A DNA stretch of 64,000 bases, from positions 32,001 to 96,000 of the IMG/VR virus record IMGVR_UViG_3300020577_014401; one strand, written 5' to 3'. The position numbers and the translations under genes were made by a program. The notes under the pieces were generated by a model. That model had not been told where the DNA came from. It saw only the letters and a program-made list of their open reading frames with translations, and did no database searches. The stretch comes from a virus (Duplodnaviria; Caudoviricetes). Below, piece by piece: positions 5,348 to 53,905 of this stretch (position 1 is its first letter; every line of letters begins with the position of its first letter).

Positions 5348-5787
5348 TGGCGACCCCGGCCCCGATCAATCCGTCGAAAAGCGACATCGCCCTGCTCGGC
5401 GATGGCAGCTTCACGTTCGACCCGGATTCGTTCGGGCCGTTCGGCGTCCGCGGTGCGGACAAGGTCGCGCAGCGATTCCTCTACGCTCTGTTCACTCCGG
5501 CAGGATCTGTCGCCGGCCGACCGAAAGACGGCACCGATTTTCTAAGGATGATCTCGTCGTTCGCGTCGGAATTCGATGTGTTCGCTGCATTTGCTTCATG
5601 CGAGCCGAAAGCCGTGACGACGGTGAAATCGTACGAATCGACCACCGACCCGGCTGCTGACCGGATCGACGGAGCCGCCTTGGCGGCGATGGAGCTCACG
5701 GCAGGTCTGTTGACGCTGACGTTCAAGGTCGCGACGATGGATGCCTCGCAACCGACCCAGGTCATCGACTACACGCTGGAAGCCTGA
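5347..5787 (+). CDS. Baseplate wedge subunit (gp25/GPW-like)
   Basis: 'KVAQRFLYALFTPAGSVAGRPKDGTDF' fits the gp25-like LxTxxGS...PxxG pattern; directly upstream of baseplate J. Confidence 0.65.
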   Translation: MATPAPINPSKSDIALLGDGSFTFDPDSFGPFGVRGADKVAQRFLYALFTPAGSVAGRPKDGTDFLRMISSFASEFDVFAAFASCEPKAVTTVKSYESTTDPAADRIDGAALAAMELTAGLLTLTFKVATMDASQPTQVIDYTLEA

Positions 5788-7412
5788 TGCCGACCACCGC
5801 CGCCGATCTCGCCGGAGCGACCGACAGCCAGATCCTGGCTGCGCGGAACGCCCTCATCGCGTACCTCCAGGAACGGTGGCCGAACCTCGCCATTCGCGGT
5901 GGCCCGCTCGCCGATCTTGTCCTCGGACCATCCGGGAACGCGTTGGCGGCGGTCGATGTGATCGCCGCCGAAGCGGCGCTGTCGTACAACCCCGAAGAAG
6001 CGTTGGCCCAGGGGGGCTACAACTCGACCATCCTCGATTCCGTTCTCGCCGGGCGAGGTGTGCAGAGAACCCAAGCGGCGGCCGCTTCCGGGTCGGCGGG
6101 CATCCGCCTCACGAGTTCGACAACCCGGTCGTTCCCGGCCGGGTTCAAGTTCCAGACCGCCGACGGAGTCGAGTTCGCAACCAGTCAGTCGACCCGCCTC
6201 CTCGCACCCGGCTCGACCGCCGTGCTCGCCAACGATTACGTCTTGGTGGCGGACGCTGAAGGCGAGACGTTTCTGGCGGTGGTGGCGATCAGCTGCCGGA
6301 CGACCGGGTTGTCCGGGAATCGGGCCGCCGGGACGACGCTTGAAGCTGTCGACACGTTCGATTCGCTTGATTCCGCGTGGATCGCTGTCGACACGGCTGG
6401 CGGGTTGGACGAGGAGACCGACGCTGAGCTGCTCGCAAGACTGCCGGCCGCCTCGGCGCCCAGGACCGCGGCGTCGATCGCCGGTGCCGAAGGTCTGATC
6501 CGAGATGCGATCCCGGCCGCCTCCACTCTGTCATCGATCAAGTTCGGTGACCCGGAGATGGTCCGGGGGCGATCCGTTCTGTCGACTCAAACCCCCGGCC
6601 GATTCGACGTCCGGTTCCGCACCGAGTCGTCGCCGAGCCGGGAAGGCACGACAGTCGAAGCCGAGCTCATCAGCATCGACCCGGAAGACATCGGAACTTG
6701 GAGGTTCACGCTCACTCGGGATATCTCTCCGGGGCGATTCCTCGTTGAAAAGATCCTGAGAACCGACCAGGGTGTCACTGAAGCCGGCATCAACCCGACA
6801 GTGACCCCGGGGTTCGACCTGTCCGACATCGACGATCCGCCGGACATCCGGTCGGTCGCCGACGCGGCGCTCACGCGGTACGCCACCGCCCTTGTGACAT
6901 TTGCGGATCCTTCGACCTCCACGACCGGTTTGGAAGTGGGGGACATGAAGGATTACCAGGTGGTTTGCCGCCTGATCGCCGGGGTTGAAGACGGCCAGGC
7001 CGCGGTCGATGTCGCCGATGCGAAGGCCGCCGGCGGCGACTGCCTGGTCCGGACCGCGGTGCCGTGTCTGGTGTCGGTGACCGCCGCCGCCACACCGGCG
7101 GCGGGCGTGTCCGTCACCGTGGCGGAAGTGCGAGCGGCCGTGGCTCAGGCGATCAACTCGGCGGCGAAGATCGATAGCCGGCTATTGGCTTCGCAAGTCG
7201 CAGCCGAAGCGGCCGTGATCCTTCCGAAGGGAACAGCGTTGCTGCTTTCCAATTGGTCGGGTACCATCTATCCCAACGATGGCGATGATCCGGTGATGGC
7301 GACGGCCGACCAACTCGGACTGACGGTCGCCGACAACCTGCCAAGGAACATCAGCGCCGCCACGGTCGCTTACTACTGCGACCCGGAATCCGTCACTGCA
7401 TCCGTCTCGTGA
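5787..7412 (+). CDS. Baseplate J-like protein
   Basis: 'GVQRTQAAAASG', 'FPAGFKFQTADGVEFAT', 'TTGLSGN', 'GGLDEETDAELLARL' are typical baseplate J motifs. Confidence 0.85.
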   Translation: MPTTAADLAGATDSQILAARNALIAYLQERWPNLAIRGGPLADLVLGPSGNALAAVDVIAAEAALSYNPEEALAQGGYNSTILDSVLAGRGVQRTQAAAASGSAGIRLTSSTTRSFPAGFKFQTADGVEFATSQSTRLLAPGSTAVLANDYVLVADAEGETFLAVVAISCRTTGLSGNRAAGTTLEAVDTFDSLDSAWIAVDTAGGLDEETDAELLARLPAASAPRTAASIAGAEGLIRDAIPAASTLSSIKFGDPEMVRGRSVLSTQTPGRFDVRFRTESSPSREGTTVEAELISIDPEDIGTWRFTLTRDISPGRFLVEKILRTDQGVTEAGINPTVTPGFDLSDIDDPPDIRSVADAALTRYATALVTFADPSTSTTGLEVGDMKDYQVVCRLIAGVEDGQAAVDVADAKAAGGDCLVRTAVPCLVSVTAAATPAAGVSVTVAEVRAAVAQAINSAAKIDSRLLASQVAAEAAVILPKGTALLLSNWSGTIYPNDGDDPVMATADQLGLTVADNLPRNISAATVAYYCDPESVTASVS

Positions 7413-7431: not shown

Positions 7432-8274
7432 ATGATTCGCGCTTTCTCTTGGATCTTGTTCGCGGCGCTGGCCATCGCCAGTTGCCAGGTGCAATCCGCC
7501 GATCCGTTGCCGACGCCCAAGTCGACGGTCAAGTTCCCGGTTCTCCCGGTGAAGCCGGTCGACGACAAGAAGGCCGAGCCGACGACTCCGCCGGCCAATG
7601 ACATCCCGGTTCTCGACGAGGGCGTCTACTACGTCATCCACGACGACGCCCCGTTCATCACGTACGCATCGCCGGCGAATTTGGTCCACATCACCAAGAC
7701 GACCGGGCCGGTCAAACTGCTCGGCAAGTTCATCGACGGCACCGGCGACTTCGAAGAGAAGGAGTACAAGTCGAAGAACGTCACAATCATCCGTGCCAAG
7801 GCTCAAGGCCGGGTCGAGCTGATCGTCAACGCCGTCGGAGCTGTCGACGAGTCGACCGCCCAGCGGAAGTTGATCGACGTGATCTCTGGTCAAGGGCCGA
7901 TCCCGCCGCCCAAGCCGGTGGTGCCGGTGACGCCGACGGAAGTGAAGTCGTTCCGGGTGATCTTCGTGATCGAATCGGGCTCGACTCCGACCGCCGCCCA
8001 GCTCGGCGTGTCCGACGCGAAGCTGGTTCGCGACTACCTGACTGCGAAATGCACCAAGGAGGGCGAATGGCCGGGCTGGCGCCGGTACGACCCGGACGCC
8101 GATGTGACCAACGAGCAGCCGACGATGAAGGCGTTGTGGGAGGCTGTGAAGCCGAAGATCACTTCGACCCCTTGCCTGGTTGTCGAGACCAACGGGAAAG
8201 TCGACATTCTTCCATACCCGAAAAACTCAGTCGAGAGTCTGTCGTTGCTCAAGAAATATGCGGAGGGCAAATGA
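7432..8274 (+). CDS. Exported protein with signal peptide and Pro-rich linker
   Basis: N-terminus MIRAFSWILFAALAIASCQVQSA; 'GPIPPPKPVVPVTP' linker. Confidence 0.7.
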   Translation: MIRAFSWILFAALAIASCQVQSADPLPTPKSTVKFPVLPVKPVDDKKAEPTTPPANDIPVLDEGVYYVIHDDAPFITYASPANLVHITKTTGPVKLLGKFIDGTGDFEEKEYKSKNVTIIRAKAQGRVELIVNAVGAVDESTAQRKLIDVISGQGPIPPPKPVVPVTPTEVKSFRVIFVIESGSTPTAAQLGVSDAKLVRDYLTAKCTKEGEWPGWRRYDPDADVTNEQPTMKALWEAVKPKITSTPCLVVETNGKVDILPYPKNSVESLSLLKKYAEGK

Positions 8275-8837
8275 CTTCGGTGATCCAGTCCAACCAAAAC
8301 GATCATCTTCTGCGTCGTCTGTGGCGGCAAATCGCCATTGATGGCCAAAGTGGCTGTTGGGTGTGGACTGGAACAATATCCACAGACCACATGCACTACG
8401 GCCAGGTCAGTGTCAATAACCGAGCACAGAAAGTTCATCGGTTGATGTACACACTGATGGTCGGCCCCATCCCGACCGGGCTCTGTGTTCTTCACAAATG
8501 CGACAACCCGCCATGCTGCAATCCTGGTCATTTGTTTACTGGGACGAACGAAGACAACACAAATGATCGCCACAGAAAAGGCAGATCTGCCCGAGGATTG
8601 GCGAGTGGTCGGCATACAAAACCGGAGCGGACAGCGAGAGGGAGTAGGAACGGTCGTTCGAAGCTGACAGAATCGAAAGTGGCGACGATCCGCGATCGCT
8701 ACGCGACCGGTAACGTATTCCTGAAAACTCTCGCCAAAGAGTACAATGTTTCGACTCAAGTTGTGTGGAGGATTGTTCGGGGTATCAGTTGGAAAACCTT
8801 CGAAGACAAGACTTCACCCACTAAAAGGACTCAGTGA
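8271..8837 (+). CDS. HNH homing endonuclease (HNH_3-like) with C-terminal HTH
   Basis: 'GCWVWTG', 'VHRLMY', 'VLHKCDNPPCCNPGHLFTGTNEDNTND', 'SKLTESKV'; visibly lower GC than flanks. Confidence 0.9.
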   Translation: MTSVIQSNQNDHLLRRLWRQIAIDGQSGCWVWTGTISTDHMHYGQVSVNNRAQKVHRLMYTLMVGPIPTGLCVLHKCDNPPCCNPGHLFTGTNEDNTNDRHRKGRSARGLASGRHTKPERTARGSRNGRSKLTESKVATIRDRYATGNVFLKTLAKEYNVSTQVVWRIVRGISWKTFEDKTSPTKRTQ

Positions 8838-8840
8838 ATC

Positions 8841-9674
8841 ATGGCCATCGAACTCTACCGCGGGAAAATTCCGATCATTCGCCGTTCCCTGAACGACGGA
8901 TTCATCCGCGGCACGCCGGACGACCTCCCGAGCACCGGCTGCGTCGAACGCGACTACGACATCGACCCGGTCGCGATGGGTGACTCGCCGGCGGCGATGA
9001 AGCTTGTCGAAGACAGCGAGCTGGACGCCATCTTCGACGAACAGGAAGCGCAGGAATCCTCTCTCGAGCACATGTACGTGCGAGATGGAAGTCCGGCGTT
9101 CGAGTTCCTCGACCAGAACGGATTCCCCGACTGCTGGTTCCACTCGACGGCCCACGCCCTGATGGTCGACCGGATGAAGCAGGGGCTCCCTCCGGTCCGG
9201 TTCAACGCCGTGGCCGGCGCCACGCTGCTCAACCAGACCAACGGCGGCTGGTGCGGCCTGTCGATGAAGTTCATCCGCGAGAAGGGCTGCCCGGTCATCG
9301 GCAGCGGCCCCGGCGAGTGGCCGTACCACACCCGCAGCAACCACGACTCGCCCGAACTCCGGGCGAACATGGCCAAGTACAAGTCGCTCGAGGACTGGTA
9401 CGACTTGGGCCGTCGTGAATGGGACCAGAAGCTGTCGCAGCGACAGCTCCGCACGCTCGGGTGCGGCAACATCCCCGTTCCGACGGATTACAACAAGTAC
9501 GGCCACAGCATGCTCATGATCCGCCTGGTGCGGATCGAGAAGGGCCACTGGGGCCGTCTCACGCTGAACTCCTGGAAGGGGTTCGGCTACCTGGGCCTCT
9601 GCGTGATCCCGGAGACGACGGCCGACGTCAACAACGCCGTCGCCCTCAGGGTGAGTTCGTCCACCTACAAGTGA
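8841..9674 (+). CDS. Papain-like (C1-type) cysteine peptidase
   Basis: 'DQNGFPDCW' (oxyanion Gln and catalytic Cys), 'YGHSM' (His), 'LNSWKGFG' (Asn). Confidence 0.75.
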   Translation: MAIELYRGKIPIIRRSLNDGFIRGTPDDLPSTGCVERDYDIDPVAMGDSPAAMKLVEDSELDAIFDEQEAQESSLEHMYVRDGSPAFEFLDQNGFPDCWFHSTAHALMVDRMKQGLPPVRFNAVAGATLLNQTNGGWCGLSMKFIREKGCPVIGSGPGEWPYHTRSNHDSPELRANMAKYKSLEDWYDLGRREWDQKLSQRQLRTLGCGNIPVPTDYNKYGHSMLMIRLVRIEKGHWGRLTLNSWKGFGYLGLCVIPETTADVNNAVALRVSSSTYK

Positions 9675-9684
9675 GGTCGTCGCC

Positions 9685-10170
9685 ATGAGACTCGTCTACG
9701 CCCTTGTCGCCGCGGCCCTGACCGCAACGGCGGCCGCCGGCGCCGAACCGCCCAAGTTCGTCGTCACCAACAAGATCCCGCAGAGCTTCCAGATCGAGAA
9801 CAAACTCTCGGTCAAGAAGACGACCTGCGGGTGCGCCTCGACTGGCAAGTGCGCGTGCTGGAATGACGAGTGCGACTGCCCGGCGTGCGGCCGCGGCGCC
9901 AAAGCCAAGCAAGGCGGCCCGGGAGGTGCCGCCGTCAACCGCCCTTTCGATCCGGCGGTTACCACGCCTCCCACGAATGCCCAAACTGCGGCACCTACGG
10001 ACTCGAAACCCGCATCGTCCGCGGGTACACCGGATCCGGAGGACACTACCATTCCTGCCCCAAGTGCTCAACCACTTGGTGGCATTCAGACCCTGGGCGG
10101 TAACTGCGCCAACGGCCAGTGCCAGTCCGCTTCGTCGAAGCCGGTTTCCCGATTCCGGCTTTTCCGATAA
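9685..10170 (+). CDS. Exported Cys-rich small protein (0-frame product)
   Basis: Signal peptide MRLVYALVAAALTATAAAG; CGCxxxxxCxCxxxxCxCxxC cluster; C-terminal CANGQC. Confidence 0.75.
   Translation: MRLVYALVAAALTATAAAGAEPPKFVVTNKIPQSFQIENKLSVKKTTCGCASTGKCACWNDECDCPACGRGAKAKQGGPGGAAVNRPFDPAVTTPPTNAQTAAPTDSKPASSAGTPDPEDTTIPAPSAQPLGGIQTLGGNCANGQCQSASSKPVSRFRLFR
9942..10103 (+). other. Putative programmed -1 frameshift site (C CCT TTC) and overlapping -1-frame Zn-finger coding segment
   Basis: X XXY YYZ heptamer at 9942-9948 in the correct phase; -1 frame reads RSGGYHASHECPNCG...GHYHSCPKCSTTWWH. Confidence 0.65.
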
Positions 10171-10212
10171 TCTGACCACGATTCGCCCGACCAACCATCC
10201 GGAGACAGCGAC

Positions 10213-10503
10213 ATGAGCCTCTTTTCCGATCTCAAGGCCCTGTACGACGCGATCAGCGCCGACCAGCGGAACTGGAAGACCATCCTCGACGCTTTCATGA
10301 AGGTGGCCGCCCACTTCTTCTCGGACTCGCCCCCGACGGTCGGCGACGACGGCGAGACCGGCGACGCCAAGGAACTGGCTCAACAGATCCTCGCCAAGTG
10401 CGAAGCGCCGGCCACGTTCGGGGCCGACGGCGTCGGCGCGAACGGCGAGAAGATCCTCGAGTTCATCAAGCTGGTGCTGCCGCTGATCATCAAGTGGCTG
10501 TGA
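10213..10503 (+). CDS. Small hypothetical protein with hydrophobic C-terminus
   Basis: GGAG SD; ends ILEFIKLVLPLIIKWL. Confidence 0.7.
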   Translation: MSLFSDLKALYDAISADQRNWKTILDAFMKVAAHFFSDSPPTVGDDGETGDAKELAQQILAKCEAPATFGADGVGANGEKILEFIKLVLPLIIKWL

Positions 10504-10513
10504 ACCCGGGAAG

Positions 10514-10873
10514 ATGACCATGCCTTGGTCGCTGATCATCTCCGGGTTGTGGGTCATCTTCGGCCCGTACATCACGGAACTCGCGCGGCTTCTCTTGGAC
10601 AAGTGGTTCAAGAAAGCCGCCGAGCTCCTTCCCGAACCGTCGTTCGGGGGTGTGGAAGAAGGATCGGCCGAGTACGCTGTTCGACTCAGGAACTGTCGGC
10701 TCGAGCTGATCGACAAGACGTTGGAGATCCTGCCCTGGCACGCCAAGGGCAGGAAAACCATGTTGAGGGTGATGCGGGCCGCGATCATGATGAGCGGCCT
10801 GTCTGAAATCCAACTGAACCAGTCGTGGATCGACGACCTGTCCGACGCGGACGCGCAAATCGAAAAGGATTGA
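10514..10873 (+). CDS. Small membrane protein (holin/antiholin-like candidate)
   Basis: N-terminal hydrophobic helix PWSLIISGLWVIFGPYI; cassette position. Confidence 0.5.
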   Translation: MTMPWSLIISGLWVIFGPYITELARLLLDKWFKKAAELLPEPSFGGVEEGSAEYAVRLRNCRLELIDKTLEILPWHAKGRKTMLRVMRAAIMMSGLSEIQLNQSWIDDLSDADAQIEKD

Positions 10874-10885
10874 TCGAACCTCCCG

Positions 10886-12916
10886 ATGAGCAGCCCGACG
10901 CCCAAACAGTTGATCGGAGGATACTGGGGCGTCAATCCGTCGCCGGTCGTTGACGACTACGCCGGCGTCTGCTCGGCGGTGTCCGGCCCTGGCTCCGGTC
11001 TCTACGCCGGCTCCCCGCTCGCCTGTTGGGCCATTCAAAGAACCCAACGCGTGTTCCCCGGCCCGAATGGCTCCGTGGCGTACGGGTACCCGGCCCCGGC
11101 TTCCGATCCTGTTTGGATTTCACTGACACAGTCGTCCGGGCCGGTCCTGACCAAAGGCCCGGATTTCATCATCGAAGACGGGTATGTCTGGTTCACACGC
11201 GATCCGTTTTTCGATCGCCCAGGCCGGATGGAATTCTCGGCCGCCAACGGCTTCCAACCGGTGCTGGACATCTGGTACGGGGCCGAACCGACTTCGGTAC
11301 AAGAAACGCCTCCGCTCGACGCAACCGCCTACGCGCTCGCCAAGTCGATCGCCACGTCCACCGATTCGCCGTGCTCCGGACCGGTGCGTGAAACCGTGAC
11401 CGACATCTGGCAGGCGGCCGACGGGTCCTGGAGGGTCGTCACGAACGTCGCCGTCTACCGCCTCGAATCCGGGAACGATCCGGTCGTGGTTGCCGGGGAC
11501 GTCCTGGCTCCTGGTTCGCCGATCGGCCAGGCTTGGTCGTTGGAGAAGCTCGATTTCCGGACAGTGTCGGATTACATCACACTGCCGGCGTCCTTCATGC
11601 AAGGCGTCACGGAAGGCAACGTCACCTGGTACCGGGAGAATTGTCCGATCCTGGTCGACGACTACGCCGGCCGGACGCGTGTCCGATTCGACCTCGGCGT
11701 CGAGTCGATCGCCGACTTCGACGCCATCTGGGAAGCGTCGATGGTCAACGGCGTCGAGAACGGCCGCACATTGGCCCAAGCTCTCGACACAAGGCCGTCT
11801 GGAACGGGCGACCCGGGGGCGGCCAACCTGCCTCGGGTCGTCAGTCCGATGCGGTTGCTGGCCAAGGAGTTGCTGGCCGGATGCGCCTATCGACTGATCG
11901 TCAAACCGGACAAGTTCGGACCTTCGGGTCTTTCGGTCGATCAAGTGGCCGCGGCGGCGAGAACCGCTGCCGGCTCATATCCGGCTATCTTTGTGTGGGA
12001 AAACGAGGAACCGGTGTACGACCCGGTCCAGCCGTCGACGACGACTACGACCACGCACCCTCCCACGACGACGACAACCACGTATCCGCCTACGACAACC
12101 ACAACCACGTACCCGCCCACGACGACCACGACCACCATTCCGCCCACGACAACCACCACAACGGTTCCTGGCGGCGACTGGTACTGCATCAATGTCACGT
12201 CGTTCTCGTCGCCGGGCGGCCCCGGCTACAACTGCTTCAATGGCAGTGCTGGAACCGGGCCGATGTGTGTCCAGCAAAGCAGCGTGGTCGGAGGCGGGTT
12301 CCCGTGCGGACCGTCGGGGACGACGAATTGCCATCAGGGGTGTGGCGGCGGGGTTTCGACATACTACGACGTCACTTCCGGACCGCACGCCGATTACGCC
12401 GCGTGCTCGGTATCGTGCGGCGGCGTCACAACGACGACCAACACTACGATCGCTCCGGTGCCGCTGCAGTACGATTGTTCGCTCGGTTCTTGCGTCGGCA
12501 TCCTGATCGGCGACTACCCGACATTGGCCGAGTGTGAAGCGGCTTGTGGCGGGTACACTCCCGGAGACTGTTGCACGCTTGGAGCCCTGTACCACCCTGA
12601 TCTGAAACTGACCATCGCTGACGGTCCGAACGCGGGCGATCACACTGTCACTTGGGCCGCCGGTTGCTACCCTGATGGCTGCTGGGTGGCGTTGACCCCG
12701 AGCCTCGGCGCGGAGATCTTGTTCGGCTGTGGAAAAGTCGAAACCGGGACCTGGAGGGTGAAAATCACCCCGACGGTCCACCCGGCCATCGGCTGGAGCG
12801 ACTCTGCCAAGGCCGCCACGCAAACCTGCATGCCGTCGTTCCTCGCCATGTGGGACGACGCGGACGTGCTGGCGTTCTTCAGTACGACCCAGCCGATTCG
12901 GTTGACCGTGGCTTGA
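10886..12916 (+). CDS. Putative virion (baseplate/fibre) protein with C-terminal mucin-like Thr/Pro and Cys-rich domains
   Basis: About 380-aa globular N-terminus, then five T6 runs, then Cys-rich modules; no signal peptide. Confidence 0.7.
   Translation: MSSPTPKQLIGGYWGVNPSPVVDDYAGVCSAVSGPGSGLYAGSPLACWAIQRTQRVFPGPNGSVAYGYPAPASDPVWISLTQSSGPVLTKGPDFIIEDGYVWFTRDPFFDRPGRMEFSAANGFQPVLDIWYGAEPTSVQETPPLDATAYALAKSIATSTDSPCSGPVRETVTDIWQAADGSWRVVTNVAVYRLESGNDPVVVAGDVLAPGSPIGQAWSLEKLDFRTVSDYITLPASFMQGVTEGNVTWYRENCPILVDDYAGRTRVRFDLGVESIADFDAIWEASMVNGVENGRTLAQALDTRPSGTGDPGAANLPRVVSPMRLLAKELLAGCAYRLIVKPDKFGPSGLSVDQVAAAARTAAGSYPAIFVWENEEPVYDPVQPSTTTTTTHPPTTTTTTYPPTTTTTTYPPTTTTTTIPPTTTTTTVPGGDWYCINVTSFSSPGGPGYNCFNGSAGTGPMCVQQSSVVGGGFPCGPSGTTNCHQGCGGGVSTYYDVTSGPHADYAACSVSCGGVTTTTNTTIAPVPLQYDCSLGSCVGILIGDYPTLAECEAACGGYTPGDCCTLGALYHPDLKLTIADGPNAGDHTVTWAAGCYPDGCWVALTPSLGAEILFGCGKVETGTWRVKITPTVHPAIGWSDSAKAATQTCMPSFLAMWDDADVLAFFSTTQPIRLTVA
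12038..12163 (+). repeat. 27-bp-period coding repeat (TTTTTTxPP) x5
   Basis: Five hexa-Thr runs separated by HPP/YPP/YPP/IPP, with mixed ACN codons. Confidence 0.95.
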
Positions 12917-52548: not shown

Positions 52549-53051
52549 GTGTGATCGACCTCATTCCGCGCATGACGTGCTACGGCACTTGCGCGAGATG
52601 GAACGTCAACGGGCATGTGTTCTACCAGTTCGCCCCGGCCATGACGGATCCGTATCGGGATGTCGCTCCGTTTCTCAAGAAGGTGGTCGGACTCGCGCAG
52701 GACGGACAGAAGATGTTCAAGGGGTCGTTGACCCCGCCCGGTTACGCGACCACCGAACCGCTCCACGTCCGCCTGAATTCCGTCCCGGACTGGGCGGTCA
52801 ACGATGTCGTGATCGACACCATGTTCCGGTATTGGCCGGAGATGGCTGTCCGCCCGCCGCCCCGGAACGCCAAGATCGGTTTCGACTGGAAGGTCTGGTG
52901 GGACGTCAGTTCATGTGAAGCGGCGTTCATCCGGTACGATCCGAACGGGAAGCCGGTTCCCATCCACACCATCGAACGGAAGCCGCTGGATGAGATGATC
53001 GAGGAGCTGGGTGCCACGTATCATCTTGGGGAGCTGGTCGAATGGCTGTGA
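52545..53051 (+). CDS. Hypothetical protein
   Basis: GGAG SD; ATGA coupling. Confidence 0.65.
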   Translation: MSVIDLIPRMTCYGTCARWNVNGHVFYQFAPAMTDPYRDVAPFLKKVVGLAQDGQKMFKGSLTPPGYATTEPLHVRLNSVPDWAVNDVVIDTMFRYWPEMAVRPPPRNAKIGFDWKVWWDVSSCEAAFIRYDPNGKPVPIHTIERKPLDEMIEELGATYHLGELVEWL

Positions 53052-53905
53052 AATCGACCAAGAAGTCCCGGCCGATCACGACGCTGACTCCTTGGTACGG
53101 CGGTAACCGGACCCTCGCTGAGAACGTCGGGGAGGCCCTTTCGGGGCGGAAGTGGGTGGCGGTCCCGTTCGCCGGCGGGATGTGCGAGTTGAGGTACATC
53201 AGGGCGTCGACCATCTTGGTGAACGACATGCACCGCCATGTCGTCAATCTCGCCGAGGTCGTTGCCGATCCGAAACTCGGGTCGAAGCTGATCCGTAGGC
53301 TCCGAAGGACGATCATCCACCCGGATGTCTTGGCCCAGTCGCAGAAGTATTGCGATGCCATCGACGGGGGCGGGCTCCACAATGTCGCCTCGGAGAACTG
53401 GGCGGAGGAATGGGCCTACCGGTACTTCATCTCGGCTTGGATGGGGAGAAACGGCAAAGCCGGCACGAAGGGGGAGTTCAAGGCCGGCATGTCCGTTCGT
53501 TACGACGCCGGCGGCGGCGACTCGGCCATTCGTTTCCGCTCGGCCACGGAGGCTCTGCTGGAGTGGAATCGGATTTTGCGCCGATGCACGTTTTCGACGC
53601 TGGACGCGTTCACGATGTTCGGAAAGTTCAAGGACGACCCCCAGTGCGGTGTCTACGTCGACCCGCCCTTCCCCGGGCCGGGCGATCACTATGCCCATAC
53701 GTTCGGGGAAGCCGGCCAGCGAAAGTTGGCGGCTGAGTTGTCCAGGTTTGAGAAGACGCGGGTCGTGTGCCGGTTCTACGACCACGAGTTGATCCGCGAG
53801 CTGTACCCTGCACGGCTGTGGCAGTGGAATTTCCAGACTGGCAGGAAGCAGACGCACGAGATGACGAACGAGGAAGTTCTGCTCATCAACCTGTCGTCGC
53901 TGTGA
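53042..53905 (+). CDS. Dam-like (D12 class) N6-adenine DNA methyltransferase
   Basis: 'PWYGGN', 'PFAGG', 'VND', 'YVDPPF', 'EVLLIN'. Confidence 0.85.
   Translation: MAVKSTKKSRPITTLTPWYGGNRTLAENVGEALSGRKWVAVPFAGGMCELRYIRASTILVNDMHRHVVNLAEVVADPKLGSKLIRRLRRTIIHPDVLAQSQKYCDAIDGGGLHNVASENWAEEWAYRYFISAWMGRNGKAGTKGEFKAGMSVRYDAGGGDSAIRFRSATEALLEWNRILRRCTFSTLDAFTMFGKFKDDPQCGVYVDPPFPGPGDHYAHTFGEAGQRKLAAELSRFEKTRVVCRFYDHELIRELYPARLWQWNFQTGRKQTHEMTNEEVLLINLSSL

Follow-up and report, generated by a model that had tools for sequence, protein, structure and literature searches.

Can a phage gene hold a folded domain in one reading frame while its main frame crosses the same DNA as a spacer? The question is raised by a gene at 9685-10170 of a 64,000-nucleotide (nt) window of Caudoviricetes DNA, bases 32001-96000 of the 109,992-bp IMG/VR virus record IMGVR_UViG_3300020577_014401 (estimated to be 56% complete). 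Positions below are those of this window, and the gene and all of its features lie on the + strand. Its 161-codon open reading frame (ORF; protein P0001) contains an in-phase slippery heptamer, beyond which the −1 frame encodes a conserved domain that we predict to be a zinc ribbon. From sequence comparisons we propose, with a probability of roughly 0.6, that programmed −1 frameshifting at C_CCU_UUC yields two exported isoforms: the N-terminal part joined to the zinc ribbon (139 amino acids, aa) and the same N-terminal part joined to a spacer and a tail (161 aa).

A zinc-ribbon domain in the −1 frame

In frame 0, P0001 reads in order a predicted Sec signal peptide (residues 1-20, 9685-9744: MR, a hydrophobic and Ala-rich core, then AGA/E), a PPKFVVTNK motif, a Cys-rich module (CGCASTGKCACWNDECDCPAC, residues 48-68, 9826-9888), a Thr/Pro/Ala spacer, and a tail (10096-10170) made up of GGNCANGQC, a variable stretch and RFRLFR, with the stop TAA at 10168-10170. 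The signal peptide call draws on this sequence together with a comparable hydrophobic N-terminus in nearly all members of the family described below. The heptamer C_CCT_TTC lies in phase at 9942-9948 (CGC CCT TTC, 9940-9948, with the CCT codon at 9943 and the TTC codon at 9946) and is the proposed shift site and first frame junction. An internal Shine-Dalgarno (SD)-like GGAGG, from the codons GGA GGT, lies 15 nt upstream of it at 9922-9926 and is a candidate stimulator. The −1 frame is open from 9867 to a TAA at 10101-10103; from 9948 it reads RSGGYHASHECPNCG...GHYHSCPKCSTTWWHSDPGR, a 51-residue segment (P0004, 9948-10103 with its stop) that has two CPxC knuckles and many His and contains the zinc-ribbon/His-cluster domain RSGGYHASHECPNCG...HYHSCPKCSTTWWHSDPGR. 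A slip at the heptamer would yield 88 + 51 = 139 aa.

Searched by phmmer against 1.84 billion cluster representatives, the 51-residue peptide matched 47 proteins at E ≤ 1e-3 (best 1e-8; 42-58% identity). Nearly all of these are small (80-230 aa) and begin with a hydrophobic, signal-like stretch, and many carry one or two motifs of the PPxFVVxNK type; the domain sits at or near their C-terminus and closes with W-x-H. An alignment of 44 sequences has 11 invariant or nearly invariant positions (H9, C11, P12, C14, G15, H33, H35, C37, C40, W44 and H46), and the −1 peptide keeps every one. Scored against a profile hidden Markov model (HMM) of the other 43 members, it reaches 68.1 bits (median 61.9; rank 37 of 44), a score favored by the fact that the family was collected with this peptide as query. 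The other readings of the same DNA give −2.2 bits (+1 frame) and no reportable hit (frame 0). Judged by this homology, the −1 segment is a real member of the family and no product of chance. The sequence-only reading of this locus had located the heptamer, the GGAGG and the 161-codon ORF where they indeed lie, had put the −1 product at about 139 aa, and had thought the two HxCPxC knuckles unlikely by chance; the homologues bear it out, with the −1-frame Cys/His pattern conserved across the family.

The predicted fold is a generic zinc ribbon. AlphaFold2, given the family alignment, models the −1 domain at a predicted local distance difference test score (pLDDT) of 91.8, and the closest match in a structure search is the N-terminal zinc ribbon of NrdR (Z 4.2, root-mean-square deviation 1.9 Å over 39 residues). 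Foldseek gave only E > 1, and a sequence profile search of the PDB gave only marginal zinc-ribbon matches at E ≥ 0.001. The Pfam family DUF7563 matched at 25.9 bits (E 6.8e-6), under its curated gathering cut-off of 27 bits. With DUF7563 and generic ribbons such as those of NrdR (N-terminal) and L37Ae, the domain shares the two-knuckle CPxC...CPxC ribbon; those families lack its additional invariant H9, H33, H35 and H46, the W-x-H at its end and the export signal. From its four Cys and its invariant His, which number four or five, the domain may have a second metal site lined by His besides the zinc ribbon, in a protein that is putatively exported.

This His/Cys zinc-ribbon family of small signal-peptide proteins, with the pattern FRSGGYHxxHxCPxCG...HxHxCPxC..WxH, is undescribed, being without a Pfam, PHROG or structural entry. 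The gene products had no significant match in PHROGs, the ESM Atlas held no usable match, and the searches found no functional homologue of the zinc-ribbon protein. No family member turned up when 185,579 representative genomes were scanned twice by pattern, and only a handful of metagenomic or viral loci carry one. In some relatives (L005:36-617 and P0026) the ribbon terminates a larger protein with a CPPC motif in its upstream part, which hints at thiol-disulfide chemistry; Pfam finds no thioredoxin domain there.

Relatives carry all three modules in one frame

The closest in-frame relative, P0059 (146 aa), matches the window gene in two parts. Frame-0 residues 23-68 align at 65% identity (E 2e-18, spanning PKFVVTNK.PQSF...CGCASTGKCACW...CDCPAC) and the −1 peptide at 51% identity (E 4e-13); both parts stand in one frame in P0059, which after WWHANPG runs on in that frame to GGCEGGNCPSPS...RRGLIFRR. 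Seventeen members of a tail-bearing clade were recovered, with CxxGxC invariant and a short basic/aromatic motif at the C-terminus. In-frame tails that align with the window tail are found in P0025 (GCANGQC...RWRLFR; GCANGQCPAPSAPTRWRLFR), P0040, P0045, P0059, P0060, P0062 and P0063, and by this alignment the frame-0 end of the window gene, GGNCANGQCQSASSKPVSRFRLFR, is clearly the same tail module. The N-terminal part used alone as query in a word-indexed search returned nothing.

P0059, P0045 (136 aa), P0040 and P0025 (metagenomic) have the same three modules as the window gene in the same order, share with it a signal-like N-terminus and a PKFVVxNK/CGCASTGxCxCW part (P0045 has the very motif of the Cys-rich module), and have identical ribbon invariants. 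They differ in that all of their modules lie in a single frame, whereas in the window the middle module is in −1. Family members combine a signal-like N-terminus and the domain in one frame; here the N-terminal part is in frame 0 and the domain in −1. A conceptual read-through (frame 0 to 9948, −1 to about 10097, frame 0 from 10096) is collinear with 11 relatives. On these alignments the gene is best described as a three-module protein whose middle module has been displaced into the −1 frame, with a frame path of 0, −1, 0, and the ancestral layout would have placed a signal peptide, a variable Cys-rich part, the 45-residue ribbon and, in one clade, CxxGxC plus a basic tail all in one frame. 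Many relatives naturally terminate just past W-x-H or WWHADPK. An AlphaFold2 model of P0059 is confident only in the ribbon (pLDDT about 96), the N-terminal part and tail reaching about 55-65, so that it permits no statement on contacts between modules.

Codon usage follows the same path. We compared the GC content of third codon positions (GC3; 0.77 in the coding sequence of this phage) and a codon log-likelihood ratio (LLR) between frames. In the N-terminal part, frame 0 has a GC3 of 0.86 and an LLR of +52 bits, against −43 bits for frame −1. Over the ribbon DNA the order is reversed (frame 0: GC3 0.52, LLR −4 bits; frame −1: GC3 0.71, LLR +4 bits), and in the tail frame 0 again has a GC3 of 0.77 and frame −1 is disfavored (LLR −2.5 bits). 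The Thr/Pro/Ala stretch is thus ribbon DNA read one base out of register and no evolved tail, since the read-through aligns collinearly with the relatives; reading out of register turns NAC codons (His, Tyr, Asn, Asp) into ACN (Thr) and NGC codons (Cys, Gly) into GCN (Ala). This removes one element of the sequence-only reading, which had taken the Thr/Pro/Ala stretch for a tail in its own right. It was correct that the frame-0 ORF closes with CANGQC, and had not recognized CANGQC...RFRLFR as an ancestral module that in relatives follows the ribbon in the same frame.

Because all tail-bearing relatives keep the three modules in one frame, two indels must have occurred in the history of the gene. 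The main rival explanation stops there: a 1-nt deletion near 9942-9948 and a compensating indel near 10092-10103 have become fixed, only the 161-aa protein is made, the −1 ORF is a young and silent relic, and the heptamer is either a coincidence or the very run in which the deletion took place. We regard such a fixed double frameshift as unlikely, though serious enough to be weighed against each line of evidence that follows. It would discard the family's only invariant and confidently folded part and keep the optional modules.

The frame junctions and their signals

Homology in frame 0 (CPAC, then AKAKQ against AKPAKLQ of P0059) extends to at least Q76 (9910-9912), and the stretch that follows, GGPGGAAVNRPF, resembles the AAPGVAAPxPF linker of the family. 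In the −1 frame, the reading upstream of the heptamer is Arg-rich off-frame sequence and homology starts at the family motif (P/T)FRSGGYH. These two limits place the first junction within 9913-9948, most simply at the PF dipeptide that both frames encode through CCCTTT.

Heptamers of the H_HH.U_UU.Y class are among the most efficient in Escherichia coli, with C_CC.U_UU.C singled out for 'high level frameshifting', and stimulatory SDs were looked for 6-17 nt upstream (Sharma et al. 2014, PMC4066793); the GGAGG of the window, at 15 nt, falls inside this range. Such heptamers are rare in this phage: in 26 long genes, those in phase and of an efficient class occupy three of 13,477 codon positions (26 for any X_XXY_YYZ). 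GGAGG occurs 88 times in the 64 kb, giving a chance of 0.011 for its occurrence in any one 8-nt window. For the amino acids encoded here, the heptamer requires CCT after a C, and GGAGG requires GGA. Both are minority codons, CCT with a share of 11% among those for Pro and GGA with 15% among those for Gly. That the junction coincides with an efficient in-phase heptamer and a GGAGG, both made of minority codons, speaks against the fixed double frameshift.

Under programmed frameshifting, most ribosomes would keep frame 0, read the ribbon DNA as the Thr/Pro/Ala spacer and re-enter the ancestral tail frame, giving the 161-aa product. A fraction would slip by −1 on C_CCU_UUC, tRNA-Pro moving from CCU to CCC and tRNA-Phe from UUC to UUU, probably aided by the GGAGG 15 nt upstream. 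The slipped ribosomes would make the 139-aa product of N-terminal part and ribbon, ending at the TAA at 10101-10103, which is an ordinary end in this family. The two outcomes could be told apart by predicted tryptic peptides, the trans-frame QGGPGGAAVNRPFR and the frame-0 QGGPGGAAVNRPFDPAVTTPPTNAQTAAPTDSK.

Other features of the region were considered. A second in-phase heptamer, C_CCG_GGA at 9918-9924, stands 24 nt before CCCTTTC and gives access to the same −1 ORF; we rejected it as a shift site since the motif is a poor one and since 9919 C>T (P79S) abolishes it in the sister strain described below. Transcriptional slippage was rejected on account of the short runs (3 nt). Elsewhere in the window CCCTTTC occurs once, at 53136-53142, where it is out of phase with the long ORF 53042-53905. 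A 9-bp perfect complement between 9924-9932 and 9988-9996 (AGGTGCCGC / GCGGCACCT) has its arms on either side of the slippery site and shares bases with the GGAGG; the pairing is present in the minimum free energy fold of 9900-10010, which is no better than shuffles (z −1.2). The sequence CCGGATCCGG at 10030-10039 can pair with 9949-9955.

The second junction lies at about 10092-10103, where the −1 frame reads WWHSDPGR-stop, homologous up to DPG, and frame 0 reads LGGNCANGQC. A +1 event at the end of the −1 ORF (CCU_GGG_CGG_UAA_C, with tRNA-Gly moving from GGG to GGC) could restore a product with N-terminal part, ribbon and tail. If so, this 486-nt gene would encode all module combinations, with three outputs in ratios set by two recoding sites. 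We consider such an event quite improbable: no standard +1 signal was recognized at the junction, CGG is the codon used most for Arg, and GGU does not allow tRNA-Arg to re-pair.

A near-identical phage shares the layout

The only close homologue of P0001 among 5.8 billion clusters is P0005, a protein of equal length (161 aa) with 94% identity that is encoded on a Logan contig of 63,432 bp. Seven large proteins show how close the two phages are: residue differences number zero in the 277-aa and 625-aa proteins, one each in the 541-aa and 466-aa proteins, two each in the 271-aa and 746-aa proteins and three in the 676-aa protein, or nine of 3602 residues (0.25%; 99.75% identity), and we take the contig to represent a near-identical phage. 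The shifted layout is known so far from these two nearly identical phages only. Searches of viral_contigs with P0001, P0004, the 277-aa protein and baseplate J, and of metagenome_contigs with P0001, returned no relatives, and GenBank phages gave only matches at E 0.6.

The second contig bears on the possibility that the shifted layout is an artefact, that is, that the true gene runs in one frame and the contig contains two indel errors. The window does come from a metagenome assembly. The two separate assemblies (JGI/IMG, 109,992 bp; Logan, 63,432 bp) nonetheless differ at nine residues of the protein while sharing a collinear 161-aa ORF and spacer; two compensating errors would be needed in both, at runs of only 3 nt. 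We judge an artefact extremely improbable, and the assembly indel that the sequence-only reading had named as its own possible undoing is correspondingly unlikely, with a distinct sister contig carrying the same ORF.

All nine residue changes between P0001 and P0005 fall within residues 79-152, and each corresponds to one base change: three in the Gly/Ala linker before the heptamer, three in the ribbon DNA, and three between CANGQC and RFRLFR. The three in the ribbon DNA alter the third base of −1 codons and leave the −1 residue as it is (GGT>GGC, GAA>GAG and CCA>CCG); outside 9948-10100 only two of six changes are −1-synonymous. If frame-0 non-synonymous changes fell at random in 9919-10167, the chance that none of nine visible changes would alter the −1 peptide is 0.009-0.017, a figure from a test of n=9 that was designed post hoc, infers base changes from protein and is blind to frame-0-silent changes. 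The chance drops to about 1e-3 if sparing of the tail motifs and the heptamer is also required: CANGQC and RFRLFR are unchanged in frame 0, and at the heptamer, where the sister is known at the protein level, R-P-F is kept. The N-terminal part also has none of the nine changes (P 0.002), and is clearly constrained on that count. Conserved modules in two frames separated by variable linkers are, on these comparisons, what dual coding predicts and a junk spacer does not. For the fixed double frameshift, both the intact −1 peptide with its three third-position synonymous changes and the constraint on the N-terminal part are unfavorable.

Purifying selection on the −1 frame would also be accounted for by a separate overlapping gene, with the ribbon translated from its own −1 start (GTG 9870 or GTG 9885) as a cytoplasmic protein of 72-77 aa. 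The −1 frame is open from 9867 and contains these two GTG codons. Neither is preceded by an SD-like sequence, no −1-frame start codon occurs between 9886 and the domain, and the N-terminus of such a protein would be the Arg-rich off-frame sequence, which two of the three sister changes in 9919-9937 alter. All but a few of the inspected relatives, moreover, carry the domain behind a signal-like N-terminus homologous to the frame-0 N-terminal part. We find an overlapping gene very improbable.

Several points do weigh against programmed frameshifting, and most of them are what the fixed double frameshift would lead one to expect. An out-of-frame middle between flanks that are mutually in frame is exactly the outcome of two compensating indels, and by chance frame 0 would stay open across the ribbon with P 0.31. 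The short T or C run could itself have been the place of the deletion, so that the heptamer's position argues less strongly for a shift site. Given how little the two strains differ, a domain silenced recently would not have had time to decay and would still look intact, so the intactness of the ribbon is weak evidence, and the substitution test has the limits given with it. Change in residues 79-152 is about 20 times as fast as in the genome on average, as under relaxed constraint. Among the other family loci with DNA (L003-L006), none has the shifted layout. No convincing hairpin or pseudoknot was found 5-9 nt after the heptamer, where there is only a 4-bp stem (9954-9968, 5 nt downstream) and segments of 62-92 nt fold no better than shuffles (z −0.7 to −0.9), and Rfam has no match at the locus. 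Downstream structure is not obligatory for bacterial −1 frameshift sites. With these points counted, two exported isoforms made by a −1 shift, as the sequence-only reading had proposed, still give the best explanation of the homology, the codon statistics and the sister substitutions, with the frameshift itself a step that we infer.

Genomic setting

The window has a GC content of about 62%, and its long ORFs are nearly all on the + strand. The gene is part of the tail region, with baseplate J at 5787-7409 and an HNH endonuclease at 8049-8834. Directly upstream of the 161-aa gene is an ORF of 277 aa at 8841-9671 (8841-9674 with its stop) that belongs to no known family, and an SD-like GAGG at 9673-9676, read from the sequence 8 nt before the ATG at 9685, overlaps this stop. 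Downstream are two small ORFs and then a fibre-like protein with Thr runs at 10886-12913. No promoter or terminator was predicted within 9400-10600, which places the 161-aa gene inside an operon. A setting other than the usual tail-chaperone frameshift had been suggested from the sequence, and this fits a gene downstream of baseplate J and HNH with no PHROG or Pfam chaperone match.

The HNH endonuclease, which is of the homing type (PF13392, E 8e-12; phrog_1872, E 8e-36), separates this cassette from the baseplate genes. About 220 nt of the longest HNH ORF overlap a 280-aa ORF at 7432-8271, and the true start of the HNH gene is for this reason probably internal to its longest ORF. The ORF at 8841-9671 and the ORF at L004:1514-2629 (FRDC01001239.1), each of which precedes a family gene (an in-frame member in L004), both contain Cys...His...NSWG/NSWK motifs that recall those of papain-like peptidases; a peptidase assignment for the upstream ORF found no confirmation in Pfam, PHROGs, PDB or BLASTP searches. 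Homology between the two was rejected (BLASTP E 0.93), as was synteny of the flanking ORFs. Relative to the sister phage, divergence is concentrated in two genes for putatively exported proteins, 7432-8271 (8 of 281 residues) and 9685-10170 (9 of 161), suggesting diversifying selection or a recombination patch; a diversity-generating retroelement was rejected as the cause because the changes are not adenine-specific.

Comparison with known frameshifting systems

If correct, our reading would put programmed −1 frameshifting in a setting not reported before, the gene for a small exported protein among the baseplate and fibre genes of a large phage, with a compact signal of heptamer and SD-like sequence and no obvious hairpin. 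It would make a domain optional without alternative splicing. The architecture appears to be undescribed: the ancestral folded domain occupies the alternative frame, and the main frame reads through its DNA as a spacer before regaining an ancestral tail. Gene callers give the 161-aa ORF only, so that the conserved domain is missed and membership in the family is hidden.

The tau/gamma system of E. coli dnaX resembles the window gene in its in-phase X_XXY_YYZ inside the gene, its upstream internal SD-like sequence and the N-terminal part shared by its products, and in both genes the shifted product is shorter than the frame-0 product. In dnaX the heptamer is A_AAA_AAG, its SD stands 10 nt upstream, a strong stem-loop follows, and the −1 frame adds one residue before a stop. 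The window gene instead has C_CCU_UUC, an SD-like sequence at 15 nt and no strong hairpin, and its −1 frame holds a 51-residue domain that is predicted to fold.

Phage tail assembly chaperones of the lambda G/GT type, and T7 10A/10B, are alike in coming from the structural region and in the −1 slip on a heptamer by which one gene makes a pair of proteins that share their N-terminus. G/GT lie between the tail tube and tape measure genes and 10A/10B is a capsid gene, and there the shift extends the protein. The window gene, in contrast to G/GT, is downstream of baseplate J, has a predicted signal peptide and no similarity to the chaperones, and its shifted product would be the shorter one.

A further comparison is with corrective or compensatory frameshifting, in which a genomic indel displaces conserved coding sequence and a slip at the indel site may recover it (Atkins et al. 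2016, PMC5009743). Here too conserved coding has been displaced by an indel and is possibly recovered by slipping. In the cases described there the non-shifted product is useless, whereas in the window gene frame 0 regains a conserved tail, and both products could be meaningful.

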